Source: Candidatus Niyogibacteria bacterium (GTDB lineage Bacteria > Patescibacteriota > Minisyncoccia > HO2-45-28). From it: 64,000 nt of DNA. The stretch lies in the NCBI GenBank assembly GCA_016181935.1, contig JACOYI010000005.1, positions 595-64,594 on the forward strand, given 5' to 3'. Made by a program: the position numbers and the translations under genes. Below, in pieces: positions 4,103 through 53,095 of the stretch; position 1 is the first letter of the stretch, and the number at the start of each line of letters is the position of its first letter. A model generated the notes under the pieces. It was given only the letters and a program-made list of their open reading frames with translations. It was not told the DNA's origin and ran no database searches.

Positions 4103-4259
4103 ATGAATTCAGGAAATCATTTTCTGGAATACGCTTGAATTTCCAGCGAAATTCAAGCTCCATCCTCGGCGCTTTGTTTTTTGATTCAGCAGAAAGTGTA
4201 ATCAAAAAACACCCTGCAAAGCGCCTGTGGGGCTTCCAAAAATAATTTCCTGAATTTAT
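4103..4259. repeat. Structured three-way-junction element, copy A
   Basis: Nested inverted repeats; homologous to 52940-53095 with compensatory changes. Confidence 0.85.
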
Positions 4260-4270
4260 TTTATAAAACT

Positions 4271-5248
4271 ATGCCAAAAATTTTCATCACGCGGCGGATT
4301 CCGGAAGCGGGAATTCAAAAATTACAGGCAAAAGGATATGAGGTCGTTATCAGTCCCGAAGACCGGGTGCTTCGGAAAGAGGAAGTGCTCGAAGCGCTCC
4401 AAGGCCAGAATTACGATGCGGTGCTCTGTTTGCTGACGGATAAGATCGACGGCGACATATTGGACGCGGCCGGAAAACAATGCAAGATTTTCGCGAATTT
4501 GGCGGTCGGGTTCGATAACGTCGATTTGAAGGCCGCCGAGGAGCGGAGGATCGCGATCACAAATACGCCCGGCGTACTCACGAATACCGTAGCGGAACAT
4601 ACATTTGCGCTGATGCTTGCCATTGCGCACCGCGTTTGCGAAGCGGACCGATTTACGCGCGGCGGGCATTATGAAGGATGGGCGCCGATGCTTCTTTTGG
4701 GGAACGATCTTTCGGGGAAGACCATCGGCATCGTCGGGTTGGGGCGCATCGGTTCGCGCGTCGCATATCACGCGGTCAAGGGATTCGATGCAAAAGTGAT
4801 CTATTATGATGTAGCGAGAAACGAAGAGTTCGAAAAAGAGTACGGCGCGATTTACAAAGCAAACGTAGAGGATGTGCTTCACGAAGCGGATTTTGTTTCG
4901 ATTCACGTGCCGTTGTTGGATTCCACGCGGCATTTGATGAATGCGGAGCGGTTCCGGATGATGAAGCCAACGGCGTATCTGGTCAATACCTCCCGAGGCC
5001 CGATCGTGGATGAAGCGGCGCTCGTGAAAGCGCTCAAATCAGGCGTCATCCGCGGCGCTGCGCTTGACGTGTTTGAAAATGAACCCGCGCTCGCGTCTGG
5101 GCTTGTAGAATGTGAGAATGTGATTTTAACCCCTCATATTGCGTCTGCCACCGAAGAGACGCGCTCTGCCATGGCCGAACTGGCGGCCGATAACATCATC
5201 GCGGCGCTCGAAGGCCAAGCCCCGCCAAATCTAGTGAAGAAGAAATGA
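4271..5248 (+). CDS. D-2-hydroxyacid dehydrogenase (glyoxylate reductase/GyaR-like)
   Basis: GLGRIG, NTSRG, LDVFENEP and TPHIASAT motifs. Confidence 0.9.
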   Translation: MPKIFITRRIPEAGIQKLQAKGYEVVISPEDRVLRKEEVLEALQGQNYDAVLCLLTDKIDGDILDAAGKQCKIFANLAVGFDNVDLKAAEERRIAITNTPGVLTNTVAEHTFALMLAIAHRVCEADRFTRGGHYEGWAPMLLLGNDLSGKTIGIVGLGRIGSRVAYHAVKGFDAKVIYYDVARNEEFEKEYGAIYKANVEDVLHEADFVSIHVPLLDSTRHLMNAERFRMMKPTAYLVNTSRGPIVDEAALVKALKSGVIRGAALDVFENEPALASGLVECENVILTPHIASATEETRSAMAELAADNIIAALEGQAPPNLVKKK

Positions 5249-5295
5249 GCGCCGCGAAGACAAAAAGCCGGCGGTTCGAAAACCGCCGGTGATCA

Positions 5296-5643
5296 TTACG
5301 TGCCGCCCTTTTTGGACCGCTTGAACAGCGTTCGTTCTTTCAAGAAGAGCCAGACAAGGGGTTTGTTTGCGAAAAGGATCACAAGACCGGCACCCATGGC
5401 GATCGCTGCGGTGATGAGGACCTTCTCGGGGCTTTGTTTCACGGAATAGGATACGATGCCGGGGGCGATCGCGAAAATTTTTTTGTAATCGGGAAAATGG
5501 GGCGCGACGAAGATCTCGAACATGCCGGCAAAAAGCCCGATGGCGATAAGGATCCAGCCGAAGAGCATAAGACGGATCGGCATGGATTCCCGTTCGATTT
5601 CCTCCTCGTGTTCCTCTCCGCGTTCTTCGTGATGGGACATCAC
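5296..5643 (-). CDS. Small two-TM membrane protein
   Basis: AGGAG SD upstream and two hydrophobic segments. Confidence 0.65.
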   Translation of the reverse strand: MMSHHEERGEEHEEEIERESMPIRLMLFGWILIAIGLFAGMFEIFVAPHFPDYKKIFAIAPGIVSYSVKQSPEKVLITAAIAMGAGLVILFANKPLVWLFLKERTLFKRSKKGGT

Positions 5644-5760
5644 GTCTCCTTTTTGGGATGTTGGTCTTTTTTTTACTTAATCACCGAACCTATGCCCTGT
5701 CAATTTTTTGCCCATGGCCGTCCTTGATTTTTCTTTTCCGTCATGCTTCAATAGGCGGTA

Positions 5761-6420
5761 ATGATAGCGCTTACAGCAAAACCCCGTGAATTGACCGGAA
5801 AGCGGGCGGGCGCTCTGCGGACACAGGGCTTGGTTCCGGCTGTTGTCTATGGAGCAAAAATGCCGTCCGAACCGCTCACGGTTGATATGCGCGAGTTCGA
5901 AAAAGTATGGCGGGAAGCGGGGGAGGCGGGCCTTGTGGAACTCGCGGTCGGCGATTCCAAGAAAAACGTACTCATTAAGGACGTTCAGCGCGATCCGCTC
6001 AAGGATACGCCGGTGCATGTGGATTTTTATGCGGTTCAAATGGATAAACCGATCCGCGCAATGGTAAGCGTGAGATTTTCGGGTGATGCGCCCGCCGTAA
6101 AACAAGGGGCGATCCTAATGAAGATCATTCATGAGCTCGAAGTGGAAGCGCTTCCGGCGAATTTGCCGCGCGAACTCGAGGTGGATATTTCGAAACTGGC
6201 CGCGAGCGGCGAGCGCTTTTTGATCTCCGATTTAACATTGCCGGCCGGTGTCACCGTGATCGCCGATCCCGCCGATATCATTGCGCTCACGGAAGAGCCG
6301 AAGGCCGAGGAAGAGATTGCGGCTGAAGCGGCCCCCGGCATCTCGGATATCGAGGTGGTGGGCGAGAAAGGCAAGAAAGAGGAAGCAGTCACGGAGGAGG
6401 GAGCAGTCGAAAAAGAGTAA
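5761..6420 (+). CDS. rplY: 50S ribosomal protein L25/Ctc
   Basis: VPAVVYG and HVDFY motifs, acidic tail. Confidence 0.92.
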   Translation: MIALTAKPRELTGKRAGALRTQGLVPAVVYGAKMPSEPLTVDMREFEKVWREAGEAGLVELAVGDSKKNVLIKDVQRDPLKDTPVHVDFYAVQMDKPIRAMVSVRFSGDAPAVKQGAILMKIIHELEVEALPANLPRELEVDISKLAASGERFLISDLTLPAGVTVIADPADIIALTEEPKAEEEIAAEAAPGISDIEVVGEKGKKEEAVTEEGAVEKE

Positions 6421-6439
6421 GCGTGATATACTGCCCCAT

Positions 6440-7756
6440 ATGCGTATTTTACCGATCATCGGTGTCGGTTTCGCAATGGGCTTTTTTATTTTTGCCGTTT
6501 TTGTCGCGCGGGCGCAAACCGTGGATCCGGCGCTGGTGGGCGAGCGCAAAGCCGCGCTCGAAAAAGAGCTTGCGGGATACGAAGTTCAGATCGACGCATT
6601 CCGGCAGCAGATCGACGCCAAACGATTGGAGGCCGCAAGTTTTGAGCGCGACATTGCGATCTTGAACGCCGAGATCAAGAAAGCGCAGCTTGCCATCAAG
6701 GCGCGGACCATCGCGATCGAGCAATTATCGGACACGATCGGGGAAAAATCCGATTTCGTGGACGAATTGCTCGTAAAGATCGATCGCGAAAAAAAATCGC
6801 TCGCGGAACTCCTGCGCCGCGTGGAAGAATTGGACCGCACATCATTTGCGGAAGCGTTTTTTTCGCGCGAATCCATCGCCGGATTTTTTAAGGAATTGGA
6901 TCATTATGACACGGTGCAGGCGGCGGTTCACACGTCATTTTTGGAGATCCGGAAAACCCGAGTAGCGACCGAGGAGGAGATCGATACGCTCGAAACCCGC
7001 AAATCGGAAGAGATCGAGCTTCGCGCGCTTCAAACACTCGAAAAAAAACGCGTTGAAGAAAAGGAATCCGAGAAAAAAAAGATCCTCGCGGTCACTAAAG
7101 GCGTTGAAGCCGAATATCAAAAATTGCTGAAGTCGCGCGAAAAAGATGCGGCGCTTATTCGAAGCCAGCTCTTTTTATTGCGCGGTTCGCCGGATATTCC
7201 GTTCGAAAAGGCGGTGGAGTATGCGAATGCCGCATTCAAAGCCACGGGGGTGCGCCCCGCGTTTTTACTCGGTGTGATCGCGGAAGAGTCGAATCTGGGT
7301 GCCAATGTCGGCACGGGGAACTGGAATATCGACATGGCGGATCGCCGGTGCGCATCGCAACGCACGGCATTTCAGGAGATCACCGCTGAACTGGGATTCG
7401 ATCCGAATCTGATGCCGGTTTCCAAAAAGGCGTGGTACGGCTATTGCGGGGGCGCCATGGGGCCCGCGCAATTCATGCCGACCACATGGAAGTTATACAA
7501 AAATTTGATCGCAAAGCATACCGGCCACAACCCGCCCAATCCTTGGGAGGCGCTCGATGCATTCGTGGCGTCGGCGCTTCTGTTGAAAGATAACGGCGCG
7601 GCGGAGGGGACCTATGCAGCTGAGCGCCGCGCGGCGCTCCGGTATTTGGCAGGCGCGAACTGGCAGAAGCGCTCATATGCTTTTTACGGCGACGATGTAA
7701 TGGCGCTTGCCGCCAAGTATCAGGACCAGATGAACATCATTCTGGCGGGGCAGTAG
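6440..7756 (+). CDS. Secreted coiled-coil protein with C-terminal lytic transglycosylase domain
   Basis: N-terminal signal/TM, long coiled coil, EES...[13 protein letters not shown] motif; start placed at the ATG 7 nt after TATACT. Confidence 0.85.
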
Positions 7757-8477
7757 TTTTTGAGAATGCTTTCACGATGGGGTCGAGATCGCCCGCCATG
7801 ATGCGTTCGATCGCGTGCCACGATTTTTTGATGCGGTGGTCGGTGACGCGATCCTGCGTAAAATTGTACGTGCGGATCTTTTCCGAACGGTCCTGCGTGC
7901 CGATCTGTTCCCGGCGCACGGCGGCGACGGAATCTACGGCTTTTTCCTGATGCGCCTCCATAAGTTTGGAGCGCAAGATATCAAGGGCGCGTTCGCGGTT
8001 CCGGGCTTGAGAGCGTTCGCTTTGGGAACGCACGACGAGGCCCGTGGGTTTATGTGTGATGCGCACGGCGGTTTCGACTTTATTGACGTTTTGTCCGCCC
8101 GCGCCGCCGGAGCGCGAAAAACTGACCTCAATATCCTGGGGCCGGATTTCGAGCGCTTGGGGCGGATAGATCGGGAGCACGGCCACCGATGCGGTCGACG
8201 TATGCACGCGGCCCGATTTTTCGGTATCCGGGATGCGCTGGACCCGGTGAACGCCCGCTTCTTGTTTTAATGTCGGGTACGCATCCGGATTCGCGACCTC
8301 GATCGTGATTTCCTTGTAACCGCCGAGGTCCGAGACCGACGAATCGATCGCGGTCGCTTTCCAGCCTTTGCGGCTCGCGTATTTCATATACATCGATGCG
8401 AGGTCGCGCGCAAAAAGCGACGCTTCGGCGCCGCCAGCGCCCGCGCGGATCTCAAGAAAAATGCTTTGCGGCTGCAT
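7737..8477 (-). CDS. prfA: Peptide chain release factor 1-like (PCRF + RF-1 domains), lacking N-terminal domain 1
   Basis: [11 protein letters not shown] (PxT), GGQ and EKIRTYNF motifs; directly downstream of rpmE. Confidence 0.85.
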
Positions 8478-8479
8478 TG

Positions 8480-8740
8480 TTATTTTTTGGATTTTTTGCC
8501 CTTGCCGCCTGTTCTGGCGCGCGGCTGTTTCAAAGACGCCGCCCGCGCCCGTTTCGCCTTGAATTTTTCAACGCGGCCCGCCGTATCAATGAGTTTTTCC
8601 TGCCCCGTGAAGAAAGGGTGGCAGGATGCGCAAATTTCAACCTCGATCTTTTCTTTTGTGGAGCCGACCGTATAGGTTTTGCCGCATGCGCACCGGATCG
8701 TCGCATGCGGATAGTAGACGGGATGGAGATCTTTTTTCAT
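8480..8740 (-). CDS. rpmE: 50S ribosomal protein L31
   Basis: MKKDLHP...CACG...[11 protein letters not shown]...DTAGRVEKF. Confidence 0.95.
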
Positions 8741-8792
8741 GGAGCATAGCGTAGCACGGAGAGGCGGTATTGACAAATGTTTTGGGTAAACA

Positions 8793-8975
8793 CATTTGGC
8801 GGTTTTGAGCGGCTCGCCGTTTGCTTTTTCAAATCGGTCGTTCGTCCTGCCAGCGCAGGACGCCGACCTGCGCTCTCGGCGCGCCAACTCCGCCTTCAGC
8901 GGAGACCGTGCTTGTCGCGCCTGCGAGAGCTTTTCAAAACCAAACGCCTCGCCGCCTTTTCAAAACCGCCAAATG
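8793..8975. repeat. Structured three-way-junction element, copy C
   Basis: 16-bp outer inverted repeat, CAGC-loop hairpin, CTCGGCGC...ACCGTGC...GCGCCTGCG core. Confidence 0.75.
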
Positions 8976-9034
8976 CGCCCGCATATTACCGATGCGCCTT
9001 GAATTTAGGGCCGGACTCCTGTAGAATGGTCGCT

Positions 9035-9787
9035 ATGTCTGATGTATCAACCATGGAACCCGCAATTCCTTCCGAACCGTCGGCGGCGAGCGCGAGCGAG
9101 ACGGCGGATCCGGAACTCGAAGCGATGTTTTACGCCAAGGTTCATATCGGCTACTCACGGACACGGAGGCACCCGAAAATGAAGCCGTATATTTTCGGGT
9201 TGCGTAATACCGTGGAGATATTCGATTTGGAGCGCGTTCGCGATAAGATCCGCGAAGCCGAAGCGCTCGCGAAGGCATGGGGCGAGAAGCGCGCGGTTGT
9301 GCTTTGGGTCGCCACCAAACCGGCCCTTCGCACGATCATTGAAAAGGCCGCAGGAGATCTTGGTATGCCCTATGTCACGGGCCGGTGGGCCGGCGGATTG
9401 CTTACGAATTTTTCCGAGATCCGCAAACGGCTCGACTATTTCGAGGACCTGAAAGCGAAGCGGGCATCCGGCGAGCTTGCGCGGTATACCAAAAAAGAAC
9501 AACTGGTATTCGCGGATGAACTCATGCGGCTTGAGCAAAAATTCGGCGGTATTGTATCATTAAAGAAACTCCCCGACGCGGTCATCATTGTCGATCCGGA
9601 AGAAGAGATCACGGCCTCCCGAGAAGCGCGGAGTACAGGCGTCCTTTCGGTCGGGATCGCCAATGTGGACTCCAATCCGGAATTAGTAAATCATGTGATC
9701 CCGGCGAACGACAGCGCGGCATCGAGCGTGAGATATATCATCGAGCGCTTGGCCGCGGCTTACCAAGCCGGGACAGGAACGGAATAA
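9035..9787 (+). CDS. rpsB: 30S ribosomal protein S2
   Basis: HIG...HPKMKPYIF, RWAGGLLTNF and IPANDS motifs; promoter TTGAAT-17-TAGAAT at 8999-9027. Confidence 0.93.
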   Translation: MSDVSTMEPAIPSEPSAASASETADPELEAMFYAKVHIGYSRTRRHPKMKPYIFGLRNTVEIFDLERVRDKIREAEALAKAWGEKRAVVLWVATKPALRTIIEKAAGDLGMPYVTGRWAGGLLTNFSEIRKRLDYFEDLKAKRASGELARYTKKEQLVFADELMRLEQKFGGIVSLKKLPDAVIIVDPEEEITASREARSTGVLSVGIANVDSNPELVNHVIPANDSAASSVRYIIERLAAAYQAGTGTE

Positions 9788-9794
9788 ATCATCT

Positions 9795-10244
9795 ATGGCG
9801 GATTTTGATATGATTCGTGAGCTCCGGGCTCGGTGCGGCGCATCGATATCGCATTGCAAGAAGGCGCTTGAAGAAACCGGGGGCGATCGGGAAAAGGCGC
9901 TTGAAGTTTTGCGTAAAGAAGGAGCGGATATTGCCGCAAAAAAAGCATCCCGCGCGACGCATGCGGGCGTTGTTGACGCGTATGTGCATGCGGACCGGCG
10001 ATTGGCCGCTCTCGTAAAAGTAAAATGCGAAACGGATTTTGTCGCGCGCAACGACGAATTCCGCGCGTTCGCGCATGACCTTGCGATGCAGGCGGCGGCG
10101 ATGGGGGCGCGAACGTCTGAAGAATTGTTGGAACAGCCGTTCATTAAAGACCCCAAAAAAACCGTACGCGACCTTGTAAAAGAGATCATCGCAAAATTCG
10201 GCGAGAACGTGGAGGTTATTTCCGTGTCGCGCCTTGAGATTTAA
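9795..10244 (+). CDS. tsf: Elongation factor Ts (short form)
   Basis: LRARCGASISHCKKAL and CETDFVAR motifs; follows rpsB. Confidence 0.92.
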   Translation: MADFDMIRELRARCGASISHCKKALEETGGDREKALEVLRKEGADIAAKKASRATHAGVVDAYVHADRRLAALVKVKCETDFVARNDEFRAFAHDLAMQAAAMGARTSEELLEQPFIKDPKKTVRDLVKEIIAKFGENVEVISVSRLEI

Positions 10245-10681
10245 TGTTTATGGAGACGCTCTCTATGTATCTGGCGATCATGGGCGGGGGCATTTTGCTG
10301 GCCGCCGTTCTTGTGGGGCGCTATGTCCCGAGCGTCAAATCGTTATCGGTGCCGGATCAGCGAAAATGGCTGGATCGCCTGCCGCCGTTCCTCGAATTCG
10401 CCGCCGATTTTTGGCAGAACCGGATGCAGCCGCCATTCACGCGGTTTTGGATCCGATACATTCACCCGATCTTTTTGGGGGAAGGAGAAAAGTGGTCGCG
10501 CCGGTCCCGCATCGTGGCGCTCCGGATCGAGCGGATGTTTCACCGGTTGTCGGATTATTTTCGCGGCAAGCGCATCGCGATGCAAGGGAATGGCAGTTCG
10601 GTGGAGGCGGCACAGGGGAAGAATTCCCAGTTTTGGAGCGAGATCCAGCGGCTGAAATCATCGGATGAGAAAAAGAAATAG
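10244..10681 (+). CDS. Hypothetical membrane-anchored protein
   Basis: N-terminal TM segment; coupled to the tsf stop. Confidence 0.65.
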   Translation: MFMETLSMYLAIMGGGILLAAVLVGRYVPSVKSLSVPDQRKWLDRLPPFLEFAADFWQNRMQPPFTRFWIRYIHPIFLGEGEKWSRRSRIVALRIERMFHRLSDYFRGKRIAMQGNGSSVEAAQGKNSQFWSEIQRLKSSDEKKK

Positions 10682-10686
10682 GAATT

Positions 10687-10882
10687 GCCGCCTTAGCTCA
10701 ATTGGCAGAGCAACACTTTTGCCCGCCCGCCTAAGACGCGCCGTCCTAGCTCAATTGGCAGAGCAACAGTTTTGTAAACTGTAGGTTCCGGGTTCGACCC
10801 CCGGGGACGGCTCAACAATCGGCGCTAAGGCGCGTCGGGCGCGGTAAAGTGAAGGTTCTCGGTTCGACTCCGAGAGGCGGCT
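10687..10882 (+). tRNA. Interrupted outer tRNA-Thr (5' half 10687-10719, 3' half 10843-10882; anticodon GGT, or TGT with a 1-nt junction shift)
   Basis: Acceptor GCCGCCT/AGGCGGC, D arm GCTC/GAGC, anticodon stem CACT/AGTG, T arm CTCGG-TTCGACT-CCGAG, U73. Confidence 0.75.
10740..10812 (+). tRNA. tRNA-Thr(TGT), nested inside the outer tRNA
   Basis: Complete cloverleaf: GCCGTCC/GGACGGC acceptor, ACAGT-TT TGT AA-ACTGT anticodon arm. Confidence 0.95.
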
Positions 10883-10892
10883 CTCAAAAAGA

Positions 10893-10924
10893 AAACCCGA
10901 GCAGTTATGCTCGGGCATTTTGTT
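10893..10924 (+). terminator. Probable terminator after the tRNA locus
   Basis: CCCGAGCA-GTTA-TGCTCGGG followed by T-rich sequence. Confidence 0.6.
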
Positions 10925-11052
10925 CGGCGGTTTTTTCGTATCGCCTATACGCTTTGGAAATCAAGGCGTTCAAGGACACGAGGATGATATCCAGTGACAA
11001 GAGAATGATATGGTCTGCAAAATTTTAAGCGATTCGTGATAAAATGAAGATA

Positions 11053-12279
11053 ATGAAAAAGAAGCGCGTGGTCATCATCGGCGGGGGGTTTGCGGGCGTG
11101 CAGTGCGCGCTGGACCTCGCACGTCACCCCGTTGATCTCGATGTCATTCTCATCGACCGCGACGGATATCATACGTATCACGCCGATTTTTATAAACTCA
11201 TTACATCGGGCCATGGGCCGCTGCATATCCCGCGCGAGAAGTTCCGGCTCGCGTTCTCGACGGTCGCGCTCGAACTCGCCGAAATTTTTGAAGGAAAACC
11301 GAACGTGGAATTGGTGCGGGGGGATGTCGTCGCCGTTCATCCGAGCGCGAATGCGGTGGAATTGGCGGACGGAGAGCGCATCGCATACGATATTTTGGTC
11401 GTGGCCACGGGTTCGGTCACGAATTTTTCGGTTCCCGGACTCCGGACGCGTGCGTTCGAATTGAAATCGCCGGAAGATGCGCTCACTATCCGCAATGCCA
11501 TTGATGAGGTTTTTGCGCGCAAAGCGAAGCACGAAAAAATTTCCATCGTCATCGGCGGCGGCGGATTCTCGGGATGCGAGGCGGCAGGGGAGATCGCGGT
11601 GTGGTTGCCGAAACTCGCGCGTGAACACGGGCAGCCAGCCGGGAACGCCGAGGTGACCATTGTTGAGGGTGCGCCCCAGCTTTTAATGTCGGCGCCCGCG
11701 TGGTTTCGCAAAAAAACCGAGGCGCGGCTTCTGGCGCTCGGCGTGCGGATCATTTTTTCAAATTTTGTTGTCGGCGTCCGCGACGATGCTATTGATTTAA
11801 AAAGCGGGAACGCGGTCTTGTTCGATATTTTGATCTGGACCGCCGGGGTCAGGGCGCATCTCTTGGCCGAGAAAATCACCGGCGCCGCGCTTGCAAAAGG
11901 GAGTTGCATCGTGGTGGACCCGTATTTACGCGTCGGCAATTTCAAGAATATCTTCGCGGTCGGCGATATTGCGTTTTGCAAAGGATTCGGCGATAAACCC
12001 CTGCCGATGCTTGCACAAACGGCGATCTCGCAAGGGCGCTACGCGGCGTACGCGATCCATCGGTTATTTCACGACCGCAAGACATTTCCGTATCATCCGT
12101 ATCGTCCCCAGTTCATTATTCCGCTTGGCGGGCGGTACGCGCTCGCTTATGCAAGGGGGTTTTCATTGGAAGGATGGCTGCCGTGGGTTTTGAAGCGCGC
12201 GGTCGCGCTCAGGTATTTCATGAGTATTTTGCCGTTCGGGAAAGCGCTCCGCGTGTGGTTGCGCGGGGTGCGGATATAA
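11053..12279 (+). CDS. ndh: Type II NADH dehydrogenase-like FAD oxidoreductase
   Basis: GGGFAG, VATGS, second GGGGFSGCE and FAVGDIA motifs. Confidence 0.85.
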   Translation: MKKKRVVIIGGGFAGVQCALDLARHPVDLDVILIDRDGYHTYHADFYKLITSGHGPLHIPREKFRLAFSTVALELAEIFEGKPNVELVRGDVVAVHPSANAVELADGERIAYDILVVATGSVTNFSVPGLRTRAFELKSPEDALTIRNAIDEVFARKAKHEKISIVIGGGGFSGCEAAGEIAVWLPKLAREHGQPAGNAEVTIVEGAPQLLMSAPAWFRKKTEARLLALGVRIIFSNFVVGVRDDAIDLKSGNAVLFDILIWTAGVRAHLLAEKITGAALAKGSCIVVDPYLRVGNFKNIFAVGDIAFCKGFGDKPLPMLAQTAISQGRYAAYAIHRLFHDRKTFPYHPYRPQFIIPLGGRYALAYARGFSLEGWLPWVLKRAVALRYFMSILPFGKALRVWLRGVRI

Positions 12280-12303
12280 AGAAAAAAGCCGCTCAAATGC
12301 GGC

Positions 12304-12840
12304 TTATGTGATGATTTCATGGGCAAGGCCGACTCTGACGGCCTCGTCGGCTGTGAAAATATAACATTCACGAGACCATCGGCGGACATCCTCCAGGGAA
12401 TGACGGCCTTCGGTTGCTTTCGAAACAATTACTTCATATCGCGCATCCTCCAGTTTGATCAGCATAAGATCTGCCTCCGCTTCGCGTCTCGAAAGATCGG
12501 ATCTCGTTTCACCGATGAAGTTGCCTTCGTGGAAATAAAAGAGGGTGTTCGGTGTGATCAGACGACGATTTCCGGCAAGAAAAATAACGATACCCATGGA
12601 TTTGATCTCTCCAAGCCCGATCGTGATGAGTTCAATGCGCGAAACAAAACGGATGTAATCGTAAAACGCAAAGCCGCTTCCCATATCGCCGCCGGAACTT
12701 GAAAGAATAAGCTGCGCCGGAACCTTTTTTTTTCCGCGCGGCGTCTCGAACGATTTGAATTGCTCGATCGCGCGTGCCGTATTTTCTTCATTAACATCAC
12801 CGATCCAACAAAATGCTCGGTCATCGCGAAACGGGATCAT
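12304..12840 (-). CDS. Divergent ClpP-like serine protease subunit
   Basis: SSGGD, IKSMG (catalytic Ser), FYFHE and FTADEAVRVGL motifs. Confidence 0.75.
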   Translation of the reverse strand: MIPFRDDRAFCWIGDVNEENTARAIEQFKSFETPRGKKKVPAQLILSSSGGDMGSGFAFYDYIRFVSRIELITIGLGEIKSMGIVIFLAGNRRLITPNTLFYFHEGNFIGETRSDLSRREAEADLMLIKLEDARYEVIVSKATEGRHSLEDVRRWSRECYIFTADEAVRVGLAHEIIT

Positions 12841-12898
12841 AGTGCCTCTCAAGGAACGTTTTCTTTCATTATAGAACATTTATTGCTAGCGTGGGCGC

Positions 12899-13567
12899 AT
12901 GTTGGAAATTCGTGATTTGACCGTAAAAGCGAATGAGCGTCAAATTTTGCATACGGTCTCTTTGACGATCGCCAAAAGCGAGATTCACGCAATGAAAGGA
13001 TCCAACGGCTCCGGCAAGACGAGCTTGGCGCTTTCGATCGCCGGGCATCCGGATTATGCGGTCATGTCGGGTGATATCCGATGGAATGGCGGGAGCATTC
13101 TGGATAAAAAGCCACATGAACGAGCGCGTCTTGGGATTCATTGGATCGGGCAAAGCGTGCCGGCATTCGACGGGGTGGGGCTTTTGAGTGTGGCGCGCGG
13201 CGCGTGTAGCGCGAGAGGAAAGGCGCCCGATGTTTTTCATTTACGTTCCGAATTGGTCGCGGCGCTCAAACGGATGGGGCTTGGCGAGGATTTTTTGCTT
13301 CGGGCCCTGCACGGCGATTCATCGGGCGGGGAGAAGAAAAAAGTCGAGCTGGCATTGGCCGCGGTTTTGAAGCCGGAATGTCTGATACTGGATGAAGTAG
13401 ATGCGGGGCTTGATGCGACGGGAATCGAAGCCGCCGCTGGCGTTATCGCCGAACTCGCAGGAAACGCGGCGGTTCTGGTCATTTCCCATTCAGACGCATT
13501 CATTGAGCGGCTGGGCGCGAGTCGCTGTTATCGGATGGAATCGGGGAAACTTATTCATGAACACTGA
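12899..13567 (+). CDS. sufC: Fe-S assembly ATPase SufC
   Basis: GSNGSGKT, SGGEKK and LDE motifs; upstream of sufB. Confidence 0.88.
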   Translation: MLEIRDLTVKANERQILHTVSLTIAKSEIHAMKGSNGSGKTSLALSIAGHPDYAVMSGDIRWNGGSILDKKPHERARLGIHWIGQSVPAFDGVGLLSVARGACSARGKAPDVFHLRSELVAALKRMGLGEDFLLRALHGDSSGGEKKKVELALAAVLKPECLILDEVDAGLDATGIEAAAGVIAELAGNAAVLVISHSDAFIERLGASRCYRMESGKLIHEH

Positions 13568-14900
13568 CGAAATACGTATTCCAAGGGGGCTTACACGTTC
13601 GACCGTGGAGGCGATCTCACGGGAAAAAAGCGAATCCGCATGGATGCGTGATTTCCGTCTCCGCGCATTCGATATTTTTGAATCCAAGGCGATGCCGGCG
13701 TGGGGCGCGGATCTGTCGGATATCCGGTTCGATGATTTTTGGTATTTTATCCGTGCATCCGGACAGAGTCGCGATTGGAACGATGTGCCGGCGGAGATCC
13801 ATTCCACCTTCGAGCGGCTCGGCATTCCGCAGGCCGAGCGCGCATTTCTGGCCGGCGTGTCGGCGCAGTATGAATCCGAGGTTGTGTATCACAACTTAAA
13901 AGACGAATGGGTCAGGAAAGGAATTATTTTTTGCGACACCGATACCGCGCTTCGCGAACATCCGGAATTGGTGCGCGAGTATTTCGGAACGGTCGTTCCG
14001 GCGGCAGACAATAAATTTTCTGCGCTCAATTCCGCCGTATGGTCGGGCGGCAGTTTCGTATACGTACCCAAAGGCGTTAAAGCCGAAATTCCGTTGCAGG
14101 CGTATTTCCGGATACAGGCGCGCAGTATGGGGCAATTCGAGCGTACGCTCATCATCGCGGATGAGGGCGCGGAAGTGAGTTATATCGAAGGATGCACCGC
14201 GCCGCGCTATTCGGAAGCAGCGCTGCATTCGGCGGTCGTGGAGATCATCGCCAAGCCCCATTCGCGCGTCCGGTATACGACGGTCCAGAATTGGTCGAAA
14301 AATGTGTACAATTTGGTGACAAAGCGCGCATTTGCGGAGGAAGGGGCGGTGGTTGAATGGATCGACGGCAATTTGGGATCGAAAGCAACGATGAAATATC
14401 CCTCCGTATTTTTGCGTGGTAGAGGTGCGCGGGCGGACATTCTGTCGATCGCATACGCGGGCGCGGGCCAGCATCAGGATGCGGGCGGCAAGGTATTTCA
14501 TTTGGCGGCGGACACCCGTAGCCGTATCATTTCAAAATCGGTTTCTTCCGCCGGGGGTCGCGCGAGCTACCGCGGAATGGTGAAGATCATCGCCGGCGCC
14601 GAAAATGCGCGCTCGAAAGTTTTGTGCGATGCGCTGATGCTGGATGCCGATTCCCGTTCGGATACGTATCCCGTGATCCGCGTTAAAGAGCCGACAGCGA
14701 CCGTGGAGCACGAGGCGTCCGTATCGCGCGTGTCGGAGGAACAGATGCAGTATCTGGAAAGCCGCGGGCTTCGCGAGGCGGATGCGATAGGACTTCTGGT
14801 TTCCGGATTTTTTGATCCGCTTACGCGCGAATTGCCGCTTGAATATGCGGCGGAATTCAACGAGTTGATGCGGCTCGAAATGGAAAAAAGCGTCGGATGA
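13557..14900 (+). CDS. sufB: Fe-S assembly protein SufB
   Basis: AQYESEVVY, GQFERTLII, YIEGCTAP and TMKYPS motifs. Confidence 0.95.
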   Translation: MNTDEIRIPRGLTRSTVEAISREKSESAWMRDFRLRAFDIFESKAMPAWGADLSDIRFDDFWYFIRASGQSRDWNDVPAEIHSTFERLGIPQAERAFLAGVSAQYESEVVYHNLKDEWVRKGIIFCDTDTALREHPELVREYFGTVVPAADNKFSALNSAVWSGGSFVYVPKGVKAEIPLQAYFRIQARSMGQFERTLIIADEGAEVSYIEGCTAPRYSEAALHSAVVEIIAKPHSRVRYTTVQNWSKNVYNLVTKRAFAEEGAVVEWIDGNLGSKATMKYPSVFLRGRGARADILSIAYAGAGQHQDAGGKVFHLAADTRSRIISKSVSSAGGRASYRGMVKIIAGAENARSKVLCDALMLDADSRSDTYPVIRVKEPTATVEHEASVSRVSEEQMQYLESRGLREADAIGLLVSGFFDPLTRELPLEYAAEFNELMRLEMEKSVG

Positions 14901-14901
14901 T

Positions 14902-15486
14902 ATGGAAACGCTCATTGTAAAAGGAGCGGAAAATCATGTCTTCACGCTCGCGGCTGGTGAGGAGCGTTCTATCGTATGCGTGGCGGCGGAATCCGCTGAT
15001 ATTGATATCCGCGCGACACTTGCGTCGGGCGCGCGATTAAAGCTCATTTTCTTATTCGCGGGAAATAAGGATGATGCGGTCAGGGCGCGGCTCGCGGTGC
15101 GCCATGAGGGCGCGGATTCCGTGTCAGAGGTCATTGCGCGCGGCGTGCTCTATAATAGAAGCAGCGCGGCTGTGGATGGCAGTATTTATGTCTCGCCGGG
15201 AGCGCGGGGAGCATCCGCGCGATTCGAAGGGAAGGCGCTGCTCGAGGGGTCGGGTTCGGCGGAAATTCTGCCGACACTTGAAATCAAAGCATCCGATGCG
15301 CGCCAAGTCCGTCATGCGGCGGCAGTATCGCGGCTCACGCCGGAGGAGCGGATGTATCTCGAAAGCCGCGGGCTGGATGCGGAGGGATCCGTACGCTTGG
15401 CCGCGGAGGGATTTTTGAAGGCGCCGTTTTCCTGCGCGATCGAGATTCCGAAGGAGTTTGATTATTTACTTAAAAAAAATCGCTAA
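14902..15486 (+). CDS. sufD: SufD-like protein (short)
   Basis: PTLEI...HAA...YLESRG C-terminal motif; operon position. Confidence 0.8.
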   Translation: METLIVKGAENHVFTLAAGEERSIVCVAAESADIDIRATLASGARLKLIFLFAGNKDDAVRARLAVRHEGADSVSEVIARGVLYNRSSAAVDGSIYVSPGARGASARFEGKALLEGSGSAEILPTLEIKASDARQVRHAAAVSRLTPEERMYLESRGLDAEGSVRLAAEGFLKAPFSCAIEIPKEFDYLLKKNR

Positions 15487-15492
15487 GCAGGC

Positions 15493-15735
15493 TTAGCGAT
15501 GATACAGGTACTTGAACAATGGCTGCAAAAAGAGAAGCCAAATACCGACACTAATGGTGCTGATTCCGATTAGCGCTATGAGGAATAACAAAGCAAGAAT
15601 GCCTGTTTCTCCAGAACGAACTCCGAATCCAAAGATCGGCTGCGTTACTATGCTCAACCATTTGACGGGAAGGAAGATTATCGAAAGATCAAGAAGAAGT
15701 GCTATGAAAATGAATCGAGCTATATTAATGTTCAT
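15493..15735 (-). CDS. Small AT-rich membrane protein
   Basis: GAGGAG SD, minus-strand TTGACG promoter, hydrophobic sequence. Confidence 0.65.
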   Translation of the reverse strand: MNINIARFIFIALLLDLSIIFLPVKWLSIVTQPIFGFGVRSGETGILALLFLIALIGISTISVGIWLLFLQPLFKYLYHR

Positions 15736-15801
15736 AGAAGTCGCTCCTCAAAAAGACCTTCTATGGTTTAGATAGCATATTGAGGTTATTGCGTCAAGTT
15801 T

Positions 15802-17043
15802 ATGCGACATAACACTAAAAATACTCGTAGCGATTTCCCGATCTTAAAAATGCGCCAGTCCGCCGGTGGGCGGAGCACGCCGTTCATTTATTTCGACAAT
15901 GCGGCGACCACGCAAAAACCGCGCCAGATCGTCGAGAAATTGACCGAGCACTATGCGACCTCGCATGCCAACGTGCATCGCGGCGTGTATCGCGTGGCCG
16001 AGGAGGCGACGCGGCGGTTCGAAGAAGCGCGTGAAAAAGTTGCGCGGTTCATCGGCGCGCGAGCAAGCCGCGAAATTATTTTCACGCGCAATGCCACCGA
16101 AGCCATCAATTTAGTGGCAAGTGTAATGGCGCCGCGCATCAAAAAAAGCGATAGGATTTTAACGCTCCTATCAGAACATCATTCGAATTTCGTGCCGTGG
16201 ATGCGGCTCGCAGAAAAACAAGGCGCGCATTTTGATGTCATTGGTTTGACGCCCGAGCGGCGACTCGATTTTGCGGATTTTGAAAAGAAGCTGACACCGC
16301 GGACGAAAATCGTGGCGGTCGCGCATATTTCGAATGTATCGGGATATGTGTATCCGGTGGAGAAGATCATTCGGGCGGCGCATAAAGCCGGCGCATGGGT
16401 ATTGGTGGACGGCGCACAATCGGCGGGACATATGAGCGTGAATGTTGCCAAAATGAGATGCGACTTCTTTGCGCTCTCGGGACATAAAATGCTCGCGCCC
16501 TCGGGCATCGGCGCGCTTTACGGTCGGGAAGAATTATTGAATGAACTCGAACCGTTTTTATCGGGCGGCGAGATGATACGGGAAGTGACCACCGAATCGG
16601 CGAGCTGGAATGAGCTTCCGTGGAAATTCGAGGCGGGGACGCCGAATATCGAGGGCGCGATTTTGCTCGGCGAAGCCATCGACTATTTGCAAAAAGTCGG
16701 GATGAAAAACATCGCGGCGCACGAGGATGAATTATTGCGGCATGCGCTTGCCGCAATGAAAAAATTGAATTGCGTGGACCTGCTCGGGATGGAAAGTGCG
16801 AAAGACCGTGTCGGCGTGATTTCCTTCGCGCTTCGCGGCGTCCACCCGCATGACGTTGCAAGCATTCTCGACGAACACTACGGCATTGCGGTCCGTGCCG
16901 GCACGCATTGCGCCCAGCCCTTCATGCGGCATTTGGGCGTTCCCGCCACCACGCGCGCGAGCTTTTATTTTTACAATACGAAACCGGAGGTCGATGCATT
17001 CATCCGCGCGCTCGGAGAAATTTATGAGAAATTTTCTGTATGA
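15802..17043 (+). CDS. sufS: Cysteine desulfurase SufS
   Basis: DNAATTQKP, EHHSN, SGHKM and RAGTHCAQP motifs. Confidence 0.93.
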   Translation: MRHNTKNTRSDFPILKMRQSAGGRSTPFIYFDNAATTQKPRQIVEKLTEHYATSHANVHRGVYRVAEEATRRFEEAREKVARFIGARASREIIFTRNATEAINLVASVMAPRIKKSDRILTLLSEHHSNFVPWMRLAEKQGAHFDVIGLTPERRLDFADFEKKLTPRTKIVAVAHISNVSGYVYPVEKIIRAAHKAGAWVLVDGAQSAGHMSVNVAKMRCDFFALSGHKMLAPSGIGALYGREELLNELEPFLSGGEMIREVTTESASWNELPWKFEAGTPNIEGAILLGEAIDYLQKVGMKNIAAHEDELLRHALAAMKKLNCVDLLGMESAKDRVGVISFALRGVHPHDVASILDEHYGIAVRAGTHCAQPFMRHLGVPATTRASFYFYNTKPEVDAFIRALGEIYEKFSV

Positions 17044-17076
17044 GAAAAAGCCGCTTGGTAGAACCAAACGGCGAGG

Positions 17077-17250
17077 TTAGCGCTTTTTGAATTTAGTCAT
17101 GATGTAGTAAAAAAGCAGGAACGAGAGCCATCCATCAATGTAACCCTCGAGAATAAAGATGAGGTTGCCACCCGAAAGGAGGCCTCCTATGATCGCGCCG
17201 GAAATAGCGGAAAAAAGAACAAGCAGCGATTTTTTCAGCTCGGTATCCAC
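17077..17250 (-). CDS. 57-aa membrane protein (not in ORF track): MDTELKKSLLVLFSAISGAIIGGLLSGG...KFKKR
   Basis: Manual translation; GTG start after AAGGAG SD; minus-strand TTGACA promoter near 17283-17309. Confidence 0.6.
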   Translation of the reverse strand: MDTELKKSLLVLFSAISGAIIGGLLSGGNLIFILEGYIDGWLSFLLFYYIMTKFKKR

Positions 17251-17310
17251 GCATCTCCTTTTTAGTGAACGTTTGATGGCAGATTAGCACGCATTTAACA
17301 TTTGTCAAGC

Positions 17311-17682
17311 ATGGATATTTATCAGGAGCATATTCTGGATCACGCAAAATACCCGCGAAATGCGGGGGTGTTGGAAAGACCGACGCATCGCGGAAAGGCG
17401 CAGAATCCTTTGTGCGGCGATGAGGCCGAGATTTTTTTGGATGTAAAAAACGGGGCGCTCGCCGATATCAAATACGAAGTTCAGGGATGCATTTTGTCGA
17501 AAGCAGCGCTCTCTATTGTTTCCGAGCATGTAAAAGGGAAGAAAATTGCCGCTATTACAAAGCTCGGCGCGGGCGATGTTTTTAAGTTGTTAGGATTCAC
17601 GCCGACGCCATCGCGGACCAAGTGCGCGCTATTCGGATTCGAGGCGGTTCGTTCATTACTTGAAAAGAAAAAAGTCCGTTGA
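17311..17682 (+). CDS. sufU: SufU/IscU-type scaffold
   Basis: YQEHILDH, NPLCGD, GC and RTKCA motifs. Confidence 0.9.
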   Translation: MDIYQEHILDHAKYPRNAGVLERPTHRGKAQNPLCGDEAEIFLDVKNGALADIKYEVQGCILSKAALSIVSEHVKGKKIAAITKLGAGDVFKLLGFTPTPSRTKCALFGFEAVRSLLEKKKVR

Positions 17683-17696
17683 GATTATCGCTGGAC

Positions 17697-17960
17697 TCAT
17701 GTTTTTCGATAGTAGAAAAATTGGGTGAGAAGGAGGAGAGAAAGAGCAGAGCCCGGCGTTTGGGAGATCATGAGAAAAATGTCCGGCTTTGTCCACCCGT
17801 AAAGTCCCCAAGATGTATAAGCGGAAAAAACGGTCAAGCTGAGCACAAACGAAACGCCCTCGCAGCTTTTTTTCTTGTAGATTTTATAGATTTGATGCGG
17901 CAGGCCGATCGTTGTCAATATGAGCGACATTATCATCGCAAGGATGCCGAATGTTGTCAT
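17697..17960 (-). CDS. SemiSWEET/PQ-loop family 3-TM protein
   Basis: GLPHQIYK...EGVS motif, 87 aa. Confidence 0.75.
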   Translation of the reverse strand: MTTFGILAMIMSLILTTIGLPHQIYKIYKKKSCEGVSFVLSLTVFSAYTSWGLYGWTKPDIFLMISQTPGSALSLLLLTQFFYYRKT

Positions 17961-18024
17961 GGCGATTTCTCCATATTATTCTTGAAGAGTACGGTTTAAG
18001 CTTAAATAGCATTTCCTAGTAAAA

Positions 18025-18258
18025 ATGTCAAGTCCCGAGCAAAAAATCGCAAAAATCGAGATCGACCGCGAGCTCTGCATCGGTGCGGCGACCTGTGTGG
18101 CGCTTGCGCCCGGCGTGTTTGCGCTCGACAAGGAAAACAAAGCGTATGTTGTGGACGAGAACGGCGCCGATCAGGAGATGATACGATTGGCCGCCGAATC
18201 GTGCCCGACCAAGGCCATTTCATTATTCGATAAAGAGGGAAAACAAATTTACCCATGA
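18025..18258 (+). CDS. Single-cluster ferredoxin
   Basis: CIGAATC...AAESCP. Confidence 0.88.
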   Translation: MSSPEQKIAKIEIDRELCIGAATCVALAPGVFALDKENKAYVVDENGADQEMIRLAAESCPTKAISLFDKEGKQIYP

Positions 18259-18866: not shown

Positions 18867-18877
18867 TGGCGCGCTTT

Positions 18878-19026
18878 TGCATGCTTCTTTCTCGACACGC
18901 TCGTTCCGCCCTGCGAGCGGAACTCCCTCTATCCTCGGCTCGCTCGTTTCGCGTATGGCGCTGCGCGCAATTATACGCGAAACACCGTGCTCACTCGCCT
19001 GCGGACGGTCTCGAAAAAAGCATGCA
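18878..19026. repeat. Structured three-way-junction element, copy D
   Basis: Outer stem TGCATGCTT..AAGCATGCA; TCCTCGGC...ACCGTGC...GCCTGCGGA core. Confidence 0.75.
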
Positions 19027-19062
19027 TCAGCGCTTCAATCTAATCTTTTAACACCTTTAATC

Positions 19063-19287: not shown

Positions 19288-19288
19288 A

Positions 19289-51346: not shown

Positions 51347-51601
51347 TTAGTGCGCCGATTTGAGCCATTTCCAGAATTTCCGGACTGGAAATGCGATGCC
51401 TGCGATAGCGATGAGAAGGCCGCAAAAGTACAAGAACGCGTCCATACCCTGGCCTATGTAGTGCGACTCACCATAGGCACTCAATAAAATGAAAAAGAAG
51501 CCAAAATATACAGAAAAATAAAGCGAAACGCCAAACATTAGAACCAGGAAACAAACTGAAGAGAACCTTTTGGTGGCTTCTTCTTTAGTCATCCTTTTCA
51601 T
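51347..51601 (-). CDS. Small AT-rich membrane protein
   Basis: Two hydrophobic segments; antisense islet. Confidence 0.55.
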   Translation of the reverse strand: MKRMTKEEATKRFSSVCFLVLMFGVSLYFSVYFGFFFILLSAYGESHYIGQGMDAFLYFCGLLIAIAGIAFPVRKFWKWLKSAH

Positions 51602-51673
51602 CGTTTTTCTCTCGGTTGAAGTAACAAATCCGGTTCATTAAACCAAGGATATTTTGAAAAGACAAGCCCTAAT

Positions 51674-51700
51674 TTAGCACTCTTGACACGAGAGTGCTAA
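51674..51700 (+). promoter_or_regulatory. CIRCE operator overlapping a sigma70 promoter
   Basis: Perfect TTAGCACTC-N9-GAGTGCTAA; TTGACA inside the spacer, TATAAT at 51705-51710. Confidence 0.95.
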
Positions 51701-51718
51701 TTTTTATAATGGAAGTAT

Positions 51719-52354
51719 ATGATGCTCGAGGCACTCGAACCGCGGGAGGAAAAGATCCTCGATTATATCGTCCGGTTGTATGTCCGGCGGGCGGAGCCGG
51801 TGGCATCGTCCGATGTCCGCAAGGGCCTGCGGCTCAAGGAAAGTCCGGCGACGGTCCGCAATATCTTGGCGGAGTTGGATGAGGACGGGTATCTCGACCA
51901 GCCGTACACATCGGCAGGGCGCATTCCGACGGATCAGGCGTACCGGTATTTTGTGGATTATCTGATGGCGAGCGACATCCGCCGCCGAGCTAGCGCGGAT
52001 ATCCGGTCCATGGCAGATGCGCTGGGAATGCTTGCGATCGCTATGGACGACGACGATACGGATGCCTACGGTCTTTCGTATTTGCTGTCCCAGCCGGAGT
52101 TTCGTGAGCAGTCCGCAGTACAGCGCATCGCGCATTTGGTGGATCATGCGGAGGAGATTTTCGGCGCGTATCGCGATACCGGAGGGCGTGTATTCATCGG
52201 ACAGGAAAATCCGGTGCGCGAGGCGGAGGATTGCAGTGTATTTTACATATCCGATGGGCGGGGCGGCGCTCGGCACGAAGTGTTGTTGGTGGGCCCGACC
52301 CGCGTGAATTATGAGGAAGTGTCCGCGTTTATCCGTAATTTTTTCAAACCATGA
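51719..52354 (+). CDS. hrcA: Heat-inducible repressor HrcA (short)
   Basis: PVAS, SPATVRN, YTSAGRIPT...YRYFVD and GPTRVNY motifs; downstream of CIRCE. Confidence 0.9.
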   Translation: MMLEALEPREEKILDYIVRLYVRRAEPVASSDVRKGLRLKESPATVRNILAELDEDGYLDQPYTSAGRIPTDQAYRYFVDYLMASDIRRRASADIRSMADALGMLAIAMDDDDTDAYGLSYLLSQPEFREQSAVQRIAHLVDHAEEIFGAYRDTGGRVFIGQENPVREAEDCSVFYISDGRGGARHEVLLVGPTRVNYEEVSAFIRNFFKP

Positions 52355-52935
52355 GGACCGATTCTGATTTGGACGCTGATTTGGACGTCTCACGTCCAAG
52401 TAAAAAAATGGGGGAGGAGGAGTTGGAAGTGGTGGAAACGGGGGATGGCGAGGATTTTGGAACGCGGGACGTGGCGGCCGCATTGAAAAAAGCAAAGCAC
52501 GAATTGAGCGAATGCCGGAAAAAAGCGGAGGAATATCTCGACGGCTGGCAGAGAGCGAAAGCGGATTTCATCAATCGCAGAAAAGACGAGGAGAAGGAGC
52601 GCGAAGCGATGGCGAAGTTTGCGAACGAAAAACTTGTGAAGGATGTCCTGAATATTCTTGACAGCTTGGAAATGGCGGCAAGGGCAGGGGATTCCGGAGT
52701 CGCGAATATCCATCGCCAGTTGGCACAGATCCTGAAGGGATACGGAGTGGAAGAACTATCGGCTGTCGGCGCCGCGTTCAACCCCGCAGAGCACGAAGCG
52801 ATGCTGGAGGAAGCGGTGGAGGATGAATCGAAAGACGGAATGGTGCTCGAGGAATTGCAGAAGGGCTACCGGATGCGGGACAAAGTGATTCGCGCGGCAA
52901 AAGTGAAAGTCGGGGTTTATCAAAAATCAAAATAA
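52351..52935 (+). CDS. grpE: Nucleotide exchange factor GrpE
   Basis: RAKADFIN, FNPAEHEA and KGY...VIRAAKVKV motifs. Confidence 0.93.
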   Translation: MRTDSDLDADLDVSRPSKKMGEEELEVVETGDGEDFGTRDVAAALKKAKHELSECRKKAEEYLDGWQRAKADFINRRKDEEKEREAMAKFANEKLVKDVLNILDSLEMAARAGDSGVANIHRQLAQILKGYGVEELSAVGAAFNPAEHEAMLEEAVEDESKDGMVLEELQKGYRMRDKVIRAAKVKVGVYQKSK

Positions 52936-52939
52936 ATTC

Positions 52940-53095
52940 ATGAATTACGAAATCCATTTTAGAGTACGCTTGAACGCCCAGCGGCATTCAAGCTCCGTCC
53001 TCGGCGCTTTGCTTTTTGGCTCGCTTCGCGAAATTTTAGCCAAAAAGCACCATGCAAAGCGCCTGCGGGGCCTCTAAATGGACTTCGTAATTCAT
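52940..53095. repeat. Structured three-way-junction element, copy B
   Basis: Close homolog of 4103-4259 with covarying stems. Confidence 0.85.

Follow-up and report, generated by a model that had tools for sequence, protein, structure and literature searches.

A dispersed non-coding repeat with a conserved three-way junction, likely a mobile element, in the genome of a Candidatus Niyogibacteria bacterium

The DNA analysed here, a 64,000-nt stretch of the genome of a tiny groundwater bacterium, a Candidatus Niyogibacteria (hereafter the window; positions 595–64594 of contig C9 in the source genome G000, which spans 742 kb in 14 contigs and is rated 100% complete), carries four copies of a non-coding repeat of about 150–185 bp that folds into a three-way junction. 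A preliminary description, made from the letters of the window, had reported these copies, and reading the sequences back placed them on the + strand at 4103–4259 (copy A), 8793–8975 (copy D), 18878–19026 (copy C) and 52940–53095 (copy B); the window holds no others. Pfam matches gave the neighbours that the description had named. Copy A lies between the fba stop codon, which ends at 4098, and the ATG of a 2-hydroxyacid dehydrogenase gene at 4271, and copy B between the grpE stop codon, ending at 52935, and the dnaK ATG at 53116, both in the same sense as the genes. Copy C stands between the sodA stop codon, ending at 18866, and a gene for a NifU-like protein, and its outer stem can be extended to 18867–19037 (C9:19461–19631). 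Copy D is located between the divergent genes rpmE (L31) and rpsB (S2), in the sense of rpsB. Minimum free energy folds of the four copies were 4.7–10.1 standard deviations below those of mononucleotide shuffles on both strands (100 shuffles each), with values of −63.1 kcal/mol (z −10.1) for copy A, −73.8 kcal/mol (z −10.0) for copy B, −60.7 kcal/mol (z −4.7) for copy C and −93.5 kcal/mol (z −8.8) for copy D. The covariance model R1, described below, scored copies A and B, both of subtype 1, at 152.8 and 160.5 bits, copy C (subtype 2) at 32.7 bits over 18871–19034, and copy D (subtype 3) at 30.2 bits over 8809–8956.

The anatomy of the copies agreed with the earlier account. Each has a long closing stem (P1), a hairpin (P2) with a CAGC loop at 4103, 8793 and 52940 and a CCTGCGA loop at 18878, and a third arm composed of a short irregular helix (P3a), a GC-rich helix (P3b) and a terminal hairpin (P4). 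The copies carry the internal loop TCCTCGGC...GCCTGYGG, and the 7-nt bulge ACCNTGC is located on the 3′ side of the third arm. Copies A and B can be aligned end to end and contain the stem swaps that had been quoted for them; copies C and D have only the core in common with A and B. An inverted repeat forms the outer stem in every copy; duplex folding was unfit for delimiting the element, since it ran too far into the flanks. The outermost 13 nt of copy B (TGAATTACGAAAT) were found again at copy ends in families f10, f28 and f54, and an outer stretch of 12–13 nt (TGAATTACGAAA) is conserved in families f1, f10, f28 and f54. Subtypes 2 and 3 and several other families have entirely different termini. 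Near-invariant unpaired stretches, common to all subtypes and genomes, are the P2 loop ((C)CAGCG or CCUGCGA), UCCUCGGC, ACCNUGC and GCCUGCGG. Inspection by eye shows three occurrences of a (U/A)GC triplet in unpaired context. A K-turn on the complement strand was considered and rejected by eye: the second sheared pair would be A·C and not A·G, and its register varies among subtypes.

The claimed covariation of the stems was strong, both in subtype 1 and over a larger set of copies. The consensus fold of subtype 1 (nine copies) comprises 62 pairs in five helices. In this alignment 94.1% of the cells pair, against 82.1 ± 0.8% in 500 shuffles, and 40 of the 62 pairs have changed on both sides, against 13.9 ± 2.6, a number that none of the 500 shuffles reached. 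Sliding the 3′ partners by 1–3 columns as a control gave 6–12 such pairs and 34–52% pairing. R1, which was made from the subtype-1 alignment, aligns 51 distinct copies from 17 genomes. This 51-copy alignment is fitted to R1 and thus biased toward the structure; in it, 90.1% of the cells pair (58.2 ± 0.6% shuffled), 59 of 60 pairs show changes on both sides (51.1 ± 1.9 shuffled) and 949 cells have changed on both sides (260 ± 15 shuffled). RNAalifold on a plain MAFFT alignment of 17 copies recovered only P2 and part of P3, with the stems misaligned, and model-based alignments were used instead. Watson–Crick covariation of this kind fits pairing on either strand, as DNA or as RNA.

A search of G000 with a profile of the four copies, iterated once (nhmmer), and with the covariance model revealed a family much larger than four: 17 complete copies, a further one divided between the beginnings of contigs C9 and C12 (the split copy), and three fragments. 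The copies lie on contigs C3, C4, C9, C11 and C12. Nine belong to subtype 1, including A and B; subtype 2 comprises five full copies, including the one at 18878, and the split copy; subtype 3 has two full copies, at 8793 and at G000:C4:114901–115083; and one copy is a hybrid. All three fragments are of subtype 3, one of them an internal deletion. As for the split copy, C9:1–139 and C12:1–190 begin inside the same subtype-2 copy, with an overlap of about 110 nt, and an intact counterpart locus (G001:C65:31304–31508) is present in the congeneric genome G001; one flank of this locus matches C12 and the opposite one C9. The two contigs are thus neighbours, and the repeat is where the assembly broke.

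The preliminary description had found no named family for the element, and this holds for Rfam 15. At gathering scores, Rfam 15 matched only five tRNAs in the whole window. In E-value mode (E up to 10), the best match to copies A and C was an archaeal snoRNA model at 19 bits against a gathering score of 50; nothing exceeded 19 bits, against cut-offs of 40–90, and no ribozyme family matched. A limited full-text literature search, which is no proof of absence, found no published description of the family, and the portions of the literature retrieved on MITEs (miniature transposable elements with inverted repeats) or structured intergenic RNAs of Patescibacteria, the candidate phyla radiation (CPR), held nothing relevant. 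No promoter or terminator is common to the subtypes, and the outer stem and flanks vary from copy to copy. A TAGAAT in the outer stem of subtype 1 was considered as a conserved promoter and rejected, as by eye it is absent from subtypes 2 and 3.

Analysis of the positions of the G000 copies showed that 16 of 17 are located between co-directional genes and none between convergent genes. Their neighbours, by Pfam, include fba, tpiA/pgk, gap/rpiB, grpE/dnaK, sodA/NifU-like, nusG/rplK, rplC/rplD, the divergent rpmE and rpsB, ligA/gatC, pilB/pilC, genes for a penicillin-binding protein and a Mur ligase, genes for an M50 peptidase and a class II tRNA synthetase, and secDF. Among the 16 operon copies, 11 start or end 0–4 nt from the upstream stop codon, whichever their orientation, and the distance to the next start codon is usually longer than that to the stop. 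Either stop codons are the target, or only insertions that spare the start region of the next gene survive. With Pfam-supported neighbours, 11 copies in G000 have the same sense as the genes (the rpsB copy counted) and six are antisense; in other genomes about 19–20 copies are in the same sense, seven antisense and five ambiguous. The same-sense bias is thus about 70% and not a rule.

Comparison of congeneric genomes revealed filled and empty versions of the same gene junction, which the preliminary description had proposed to look for. The junction between fba and the dehydrogenase gene measures 179 nt with copy A in G000 and is element-free in G001 (8 nt) and G007 (13 nt), with coding flanks that align at 69–78%. 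Conversely, at four sites occupied in G001 the element has no equivalent in G000. Behind infC, before rpmI-rplT, G000 has a different palindrome of 98 nt instead of the element (G000:C4:11555–11653); upstream of groES, G000 has no element; at the site of the copy on G001:C20, G000 has 132 nt of other sequence; and at that of the copy on G001:C71, it has a stop codon, 3 nt and an ATG. The last of these sites shows that the copy-specific outer stem arrives with the element. Insertion into pre-existing hairpins, tried as an explanation of copy-specific stems, was rejected on the same copy, which has a unique stem and is a whole insertion. Two observations were made beside these sites. The slot between infC and rpmI holds different hairpin elements in the sister species. 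At the groES site, an inverted repeat, TTAGCACTC-N9-GAGTGCCAA, precedes the element in G001 (L040, on G001:C7), and the G000 stretch looks degenerate by eye; we take this repeat to be CIRCE-like.

The element was also found in other CPR genomes, where the preliminary description had suggested that it be sought. The model search detected it in 12 of 61 relatives, including G000, and in 15 of 151 sampled genomes of the class; in a phylum sample of 151 genomes, it turned up in one genome marked as belonging to another class, G261, with four matches that have the same motifs. The searches of the larger samples were stricter in filtering, and weak copies may be missed in these counts. The number of copies varies widely: 11 matches were counted in G001, which belongs to the same genus, 10 in G075 and 5–6 in G017, against one or two in most positive genomes. 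The G017 copies are near-identical to each other. A strict DNA pattern of subtype 1, too narrow to show the spread of the family, matched nine loci in three metagenome-assembled genomes, one of them a Candidatus Niyogibacteria, in a genome contig collection, and had no match in a viral contig collection.

Six copies occupy the same site in G000 and G001, and comparison of each with its flanking coding DNA revealed that the element is mostly the better conserved part. The identity of the element was 94.3% at C3:83518 (L037 in G001; flanks 73–80%), 97.2% over 109 nt at C4:109336 between nusG and rplK (L090; flanks 79–83%), 90.8% at C11:46634 (L091; flanks 81–82%) and about 99% for the contig-end copy (L094; flanks 81–90%). 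At C3:25431 between tpiA and pgk (L043) and at C4:99281 between ligA and gatC (L032), it was 82.1% and 78.0%, with flanks of 71–78% and 71–77%, respectively. The copies L090, L091 and L094 each match the G000 copy at the same site best by BLAST, and not another copy, which argues against concerted evolution as the cause of the conservation. Among the differences between shared copies are compensated pairs in P1, P2, P3b and P4. A decaying selfish repeat should not outlast its neighbouring genes in conservation, and we infer from these comparisons that selection in situ probably keeps the shared copies. At ligA/gatC, the asymmetric core is inverted relative to ligA between the two genomes, either by a flip between the stem arms or by a second insertion. 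Compensation was also seen among the near-identical G017 copies, which differ mainly by compensated double changes; L034 and L041, for example, differ by eight substitutions, four of them in two compensated pairs. Strong selection could account for such changes, as could correction inside a single strand that has folded.

The two strands of the element are not equivalent. Of 49 copies, 39 give the more stable fold on the complement strand and nine on the + strand, with one tie, and the mean difference is 5.7 kcal/mol. The cells of the model alignment comprise 2538 Watson–Crick, 125 G·U, 114 A·C and 177 other combinations. As many as 83 of the G·U cells are located in P3a, where two U·G pairs are nearly fixed; outside P3a, as summed from the pair table, A·C (that is, G·U on the complement) outnumbers G·U by 98 to 42. 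Outside P3a, the ratio of A·C to G·U was 58:27 for copies in the sense orientation and 19:10 for antisense ones, the latter a small count, and the copies are not independent. Because the direction is the same in both groups, the mismatch bias follows the element and not host transcription or its mutational skew. This is suggestive evidence against the operon messenger as the main selective agent, and in favour of an intermediate of the element's own.

With moderate confidence, we lean toward reading the repeat as a likely non-autonomous mobile element, probably moved as a folded single strand by an enzyme. The preliminary description had left the choice between a structured non-coding RNA and a mobile element; the mobile part of that proposal was supported, and the agent that it had suggested, a HUH/REP-associated transposase, was not. 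Mobility itself is suggested by the presence and absence of the element at the same gene junctions in related genomes, together with its patchy spread with bursts of copies and its occurrence in both orientations. A single-stranded intermediate is suggested by the orientation-linked mismatch bias and by the compensated changes between near-identical copies. A trans-acting protein may recognise the unpaired motifs, namely the CAGC/CUGCGA loop, UCCUCGGC, the ACCNUGC bulge and GCCUGCGG. On this model, the element would move as a folded single strand handled by the candidate enzyme, with the unpaired core motifs read by the predicted trans-acting protein, and insertions would survive only directly behind stop codons. 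Whichever way it points, an inserted element would be co-transcribed with the operon and would place a hairpin of 25–30 bp after the upstream cistron. REP, ERIC, Correia and bcr1 repeats offer analogies for what this hairpin might do, namely protect 3′ ends or present a site to RNase III, and shared copies would be retained by selection.

A bolder version of this model, to which we give a small chance, makes the repeat (the Y element) the substrate of a structure-specific Patescibacteria enzyme that would read three unpaired WGC triplets on one strand of the folded single-stranded intermediate; the host would keep individual insertions because they serve as signals between cistrons, directly after stop codons, in genomes where translation led by Shine–Dalgarno sequences has largely been given up. 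If true, the element would stand for a novel class of mobile elements, defined by structure and at the same time serving to punctuate operons.

Several results weigh against a non-autonomous mobile element, or fit it poorly. In four comparisons of filled with empty sites and in six G017 copies, no target-site duplication could be established; some element ends show a TA or TAA, though in AT-rich surroundings. Neither insertion nor excision was seen directly. A search of sequencing runs detected the organism in four DNA runs, all of one study, and in no RNA run. In the metagenomic contigs of these four DNA runs over window positions 1–20000, contigs end inside repeats, for example at 4154, and none of the 15 joints listed skips a three-way-junction copy, which says nothing on excision. 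The termini are conserved only in families f1, f10, f28 and f54 and the core is universal, which sets the element apart from transposons that are recognised by their terminal repeats. The strand bias favours the complement, yet P3a keeps its two nearly fixed U·G pairs on the + strand, and the antisense count behind the bias is the small one given above. At four of the six sites shared by G000 and G001 the element has clearly diverged less than the coding DNA on either side of it, a poor fit to a purely selfish, decaying repeat. In addition, no autonomous partner or transposase was found, in searches that did not extend to rve, DDE_3, IS110, IS91, serine recombinases or Rep families. DDE_Tnp_1 and the TnpB zinc-ribbon domain occur in none of five element-rich genomes. 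Two nucleases were considered as the enzyme and rejected: DUF559 is present in one of these five genomes (G040), and homologues of the Mrr-type nuclease from G075 described next were found in 3 of 61 relatives, all of which lack the element. In G075, two inverted element copies in L075 (G075:C5:44000–49000), at 1411–1572 (+) and 3473–3634 (−), bracket a 1.9-kb gene pair encoding an Mrr_cat restriction-endonuclease-like protein and a 234-aa protein, between an ABC-F ATPase gene and obg; this arrangement could be a composite mobile cassette.

Among the alternatives, we give most weight to a cis-acting RNA signal of operon messengers, though we regard it as unlikely. On this account the outer stem of 25–30 bp would serve putative intercistronic processing by RNase III or 3′-end protection, and gain and loss would be regulatory turnover. 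The account draws on the 16 of 17 copies between co-directional genes, 11 of 16 of them 0–4 nt behind the upstream stop, on the mostly housekeeping operons that they occupy (fba, tpiA/pgk, gap/rpiB, grpE/dnaK, nusG/rplK, rplC/rplD, pilB/pilC), and on the share of about 70% of oriented copies that follow the gene sense. Comparable junctions also recur in other families, with elements at rplO/secY in G017, after secY in G081 and, in both G017 and G075, behind a gene for an M23 peptidase, and the element stands beside ligA in G000, G001 and G004. Most of the shared copies are conserved beyond the level of the genes beside them, and they contain compensated changes, and Correia and ERIC repeats, in the passages cited, are reported to act on mRNA via RNase III or RNase E (PMC3184786, PMC2649163). 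Antisense copies, six of 17 in G000 and seven elsewhere, nevertheless keep the same asymmetric motifs, including copies shared between species; the mismatch bias is alike in sense and antisense copies and favours the strand that in most copies is not in the messenger; and the near-identical G017 copies and whole-unit insertions into spacers of 3–8 nt resemble transposition.

Mobilisation in trans by a HUH Y1 transposase, either a RAYT (REP-associated tyrosine transposase) or a TnpA of the IS200/IS605 type, acting on folded single-stranded DNA as for REP (repetitive extragenic palindromic) or REPIN repeats, was the agent named in the preliminary description and retains a slim chance. Transposition of this kind is consistent with the absence of a detected target duplication, the conserved fold and unpaired motifs and the element-linked strand bias, and Y1_Tnp genes are present in all five element-rich genomes tested. 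The resident enzyme, however, has its own, unrelated REP hairpin. The sole Y1_Tnp gene of G000, a RAYT at C8:53951–54676 within the region G000:C8:53912–55589, has a GTAG-loop hairpin of about 21 nt on both sides and contains one copy of it; this hairpin occurs 11–23 times in G000, has no similarity to the three-way-junction element and represents a third repeat family. Comparison of match positions showed no Y1 gene adjoining an element in G000, G001, G007 or G017. Among the 61 relatives, 34 have Y1_Tnp, namely 9 of the 12 that carry the element and 25 of the 49 that do not, which leaves three element-bearing genomes devoid of the gene. The element itself lacks a GTAG in a defining position, and its 150–185 nt far exceed the size of a REP.

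A MITE of the DDE type, whose transposase would be encoded elsewhere (in another cell, a phage or a plasmid) and whose three-way junction would be incidental, is slightly less probable still. A terminal inverted repeat with outer nucleotides conserved across four families, a fitting size without coding capacity, and a patchy distribution with copy bursts would all be expected of such an element. Against this, no consistent target duplication was found, the termini are wholly different in subtypes 2 and 3 and several families with the internal core universal, DDE_Tnp_1 was missing from the five element-rich genomes, and the strict subtype-1 pattern had no match in viral contigs. Least probable of all is a new class of RNA, in which every copy would stand alone as a small RNA gene or as a self-cleaving ribozyme: near-invariant unpaired nucleotides in a strongly covarying three-way junction, conservation in situ and a strand bias independent of host transcription would suit it, but no promoter or terminator is conserved across subtypes, stems and flanks vary, about 20 paralogues stand in 742 kb against none in most relatives, and no Rfam ribozyme family matched even at E up to 10.

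We compared the element with known systems. The closest described repeats are the small structured mobile repeats bcr1, ERIC and Correia. bcr1 of the Bacillus cereus group, according to the cited passages, is about 155 bp long, has 5-bp direct repeats at its ends and is transcribed (PMC3184786). It resembles the element in size, lack of coding capacity, intergenic dispersal, uneven occurrence among related strains and compensated changes that keep a cruciform-like fold, as far as described there (PMC3184786); the element differs in its asymmetric three-way-junction core, common to families of the whole class, and in that no duplication was found. Compensated changes at the RNA level are described for bcr1, ERIC and Correia in the same passages (PMC3184786, PMC2649163). 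ERIC (or IRU) of Enterobacteriaceae and Correia (CREE or NEMIS) of Neisseria are, in the portions cited, likewise imperfect palindromes of 100–160 bp in transcribed intergenic regions and in either orientation (PMC3184786, PMC2649163). They are present or absent between close relatives and form long messenger hairpins that are possible RNase targets, which in the element are predicted only. In these accounts, ERIC and Correia have terminal inverted repeats with TA duplication, and Correia has an IHF site and promoter-forming ends in addition; none of these features was found in the element, whose universal part is the internal junction.

REP, BIME and REPIN-RAYT systems share with the element structure-dependent repeats that stand behind genes and are long-lived; they have no target duplication, and none was established for the element. 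G000 has a RAYT gene; REPs are hairpins of 20–40 nt with GTAG that flank their own RAYT, unlike a three-way junction of 150–185 nt. The T-shaped terminal hairpins of parvoviruses, such as the inverted terminal repeat (ITR, 145 nt) of adeno-associated virus, are the ends of linear single-stranded DNA genomes and are processed by the HUH nuclease Rep. The element is similar to the ITR in its long stem with two small arms, and the flipped-tip variants of the ITR recall the inverted ligA/gatC copy; the element differs as an internal chromosomal repeat, and the search for a Rep was limited to Y1_Tnp. PATEs derived from IS200/IS605 would be expected to have two subterminal hairpins, no terminal repeats and a fixed tetra- or pentanucleotide 5′ of the left end; the two internal hairpins of the element are unlike each other, and its terminal repeats are long. 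Among the six G017 copies no fixed 4–5-mer was found in that place, with TG preceding five of them. The element ends do not read GTTRRRY as in the R″/R′ core sites (RYYYAAC...GTTRRRY) of integron attC sites, judged by eye on the four copies without a pattern search, and attC sites form cassette arrays in one orientation, whereas the neighbours of the element are housekeeping genes in both orientations. The element is set apart from these described repeats by the combination of no demonstrable duplication, lineage-limited termini, a universal core, spread across one class of Patescibacteria and conservation in situ above that of adjacent genes; its conservation and strand bias fit no simple model.

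Genomes of Patescibacteria, at 0.5–1 Mb, have almost no spare DNA, and G000 carries about 20 copies of this element besides the REP family and a second structured repeat. A repeat that is gained and lost, yet is kept better than adjacent genes, bears on the question of selfish DNA in minimal genomes, and may point to a new enzyme or to an mRNA-processing signal. The family breaks assemblies, as shown by the two G000 contigs that end inside a copy, and a covariance model of it would improve intergenic annotation in Patescibacteria genomes.

The second repeat, unrelated to the first, is located in the window at 19288–19450, between the NifU-like gene and a class-V aminotransferase gene. It is about 155 nt long and forms a long hairpin with a branched tip, and at least 14 copies with 76–93% identity occur on contigs C3, C4, C7, C8, C11, C12 and C13. 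In run X4, metagenomic contigs join 19288 to 19450 with 13 other letters between them, at a depth above that of G000, so that a co-occurring relative must be without the copy at this site.

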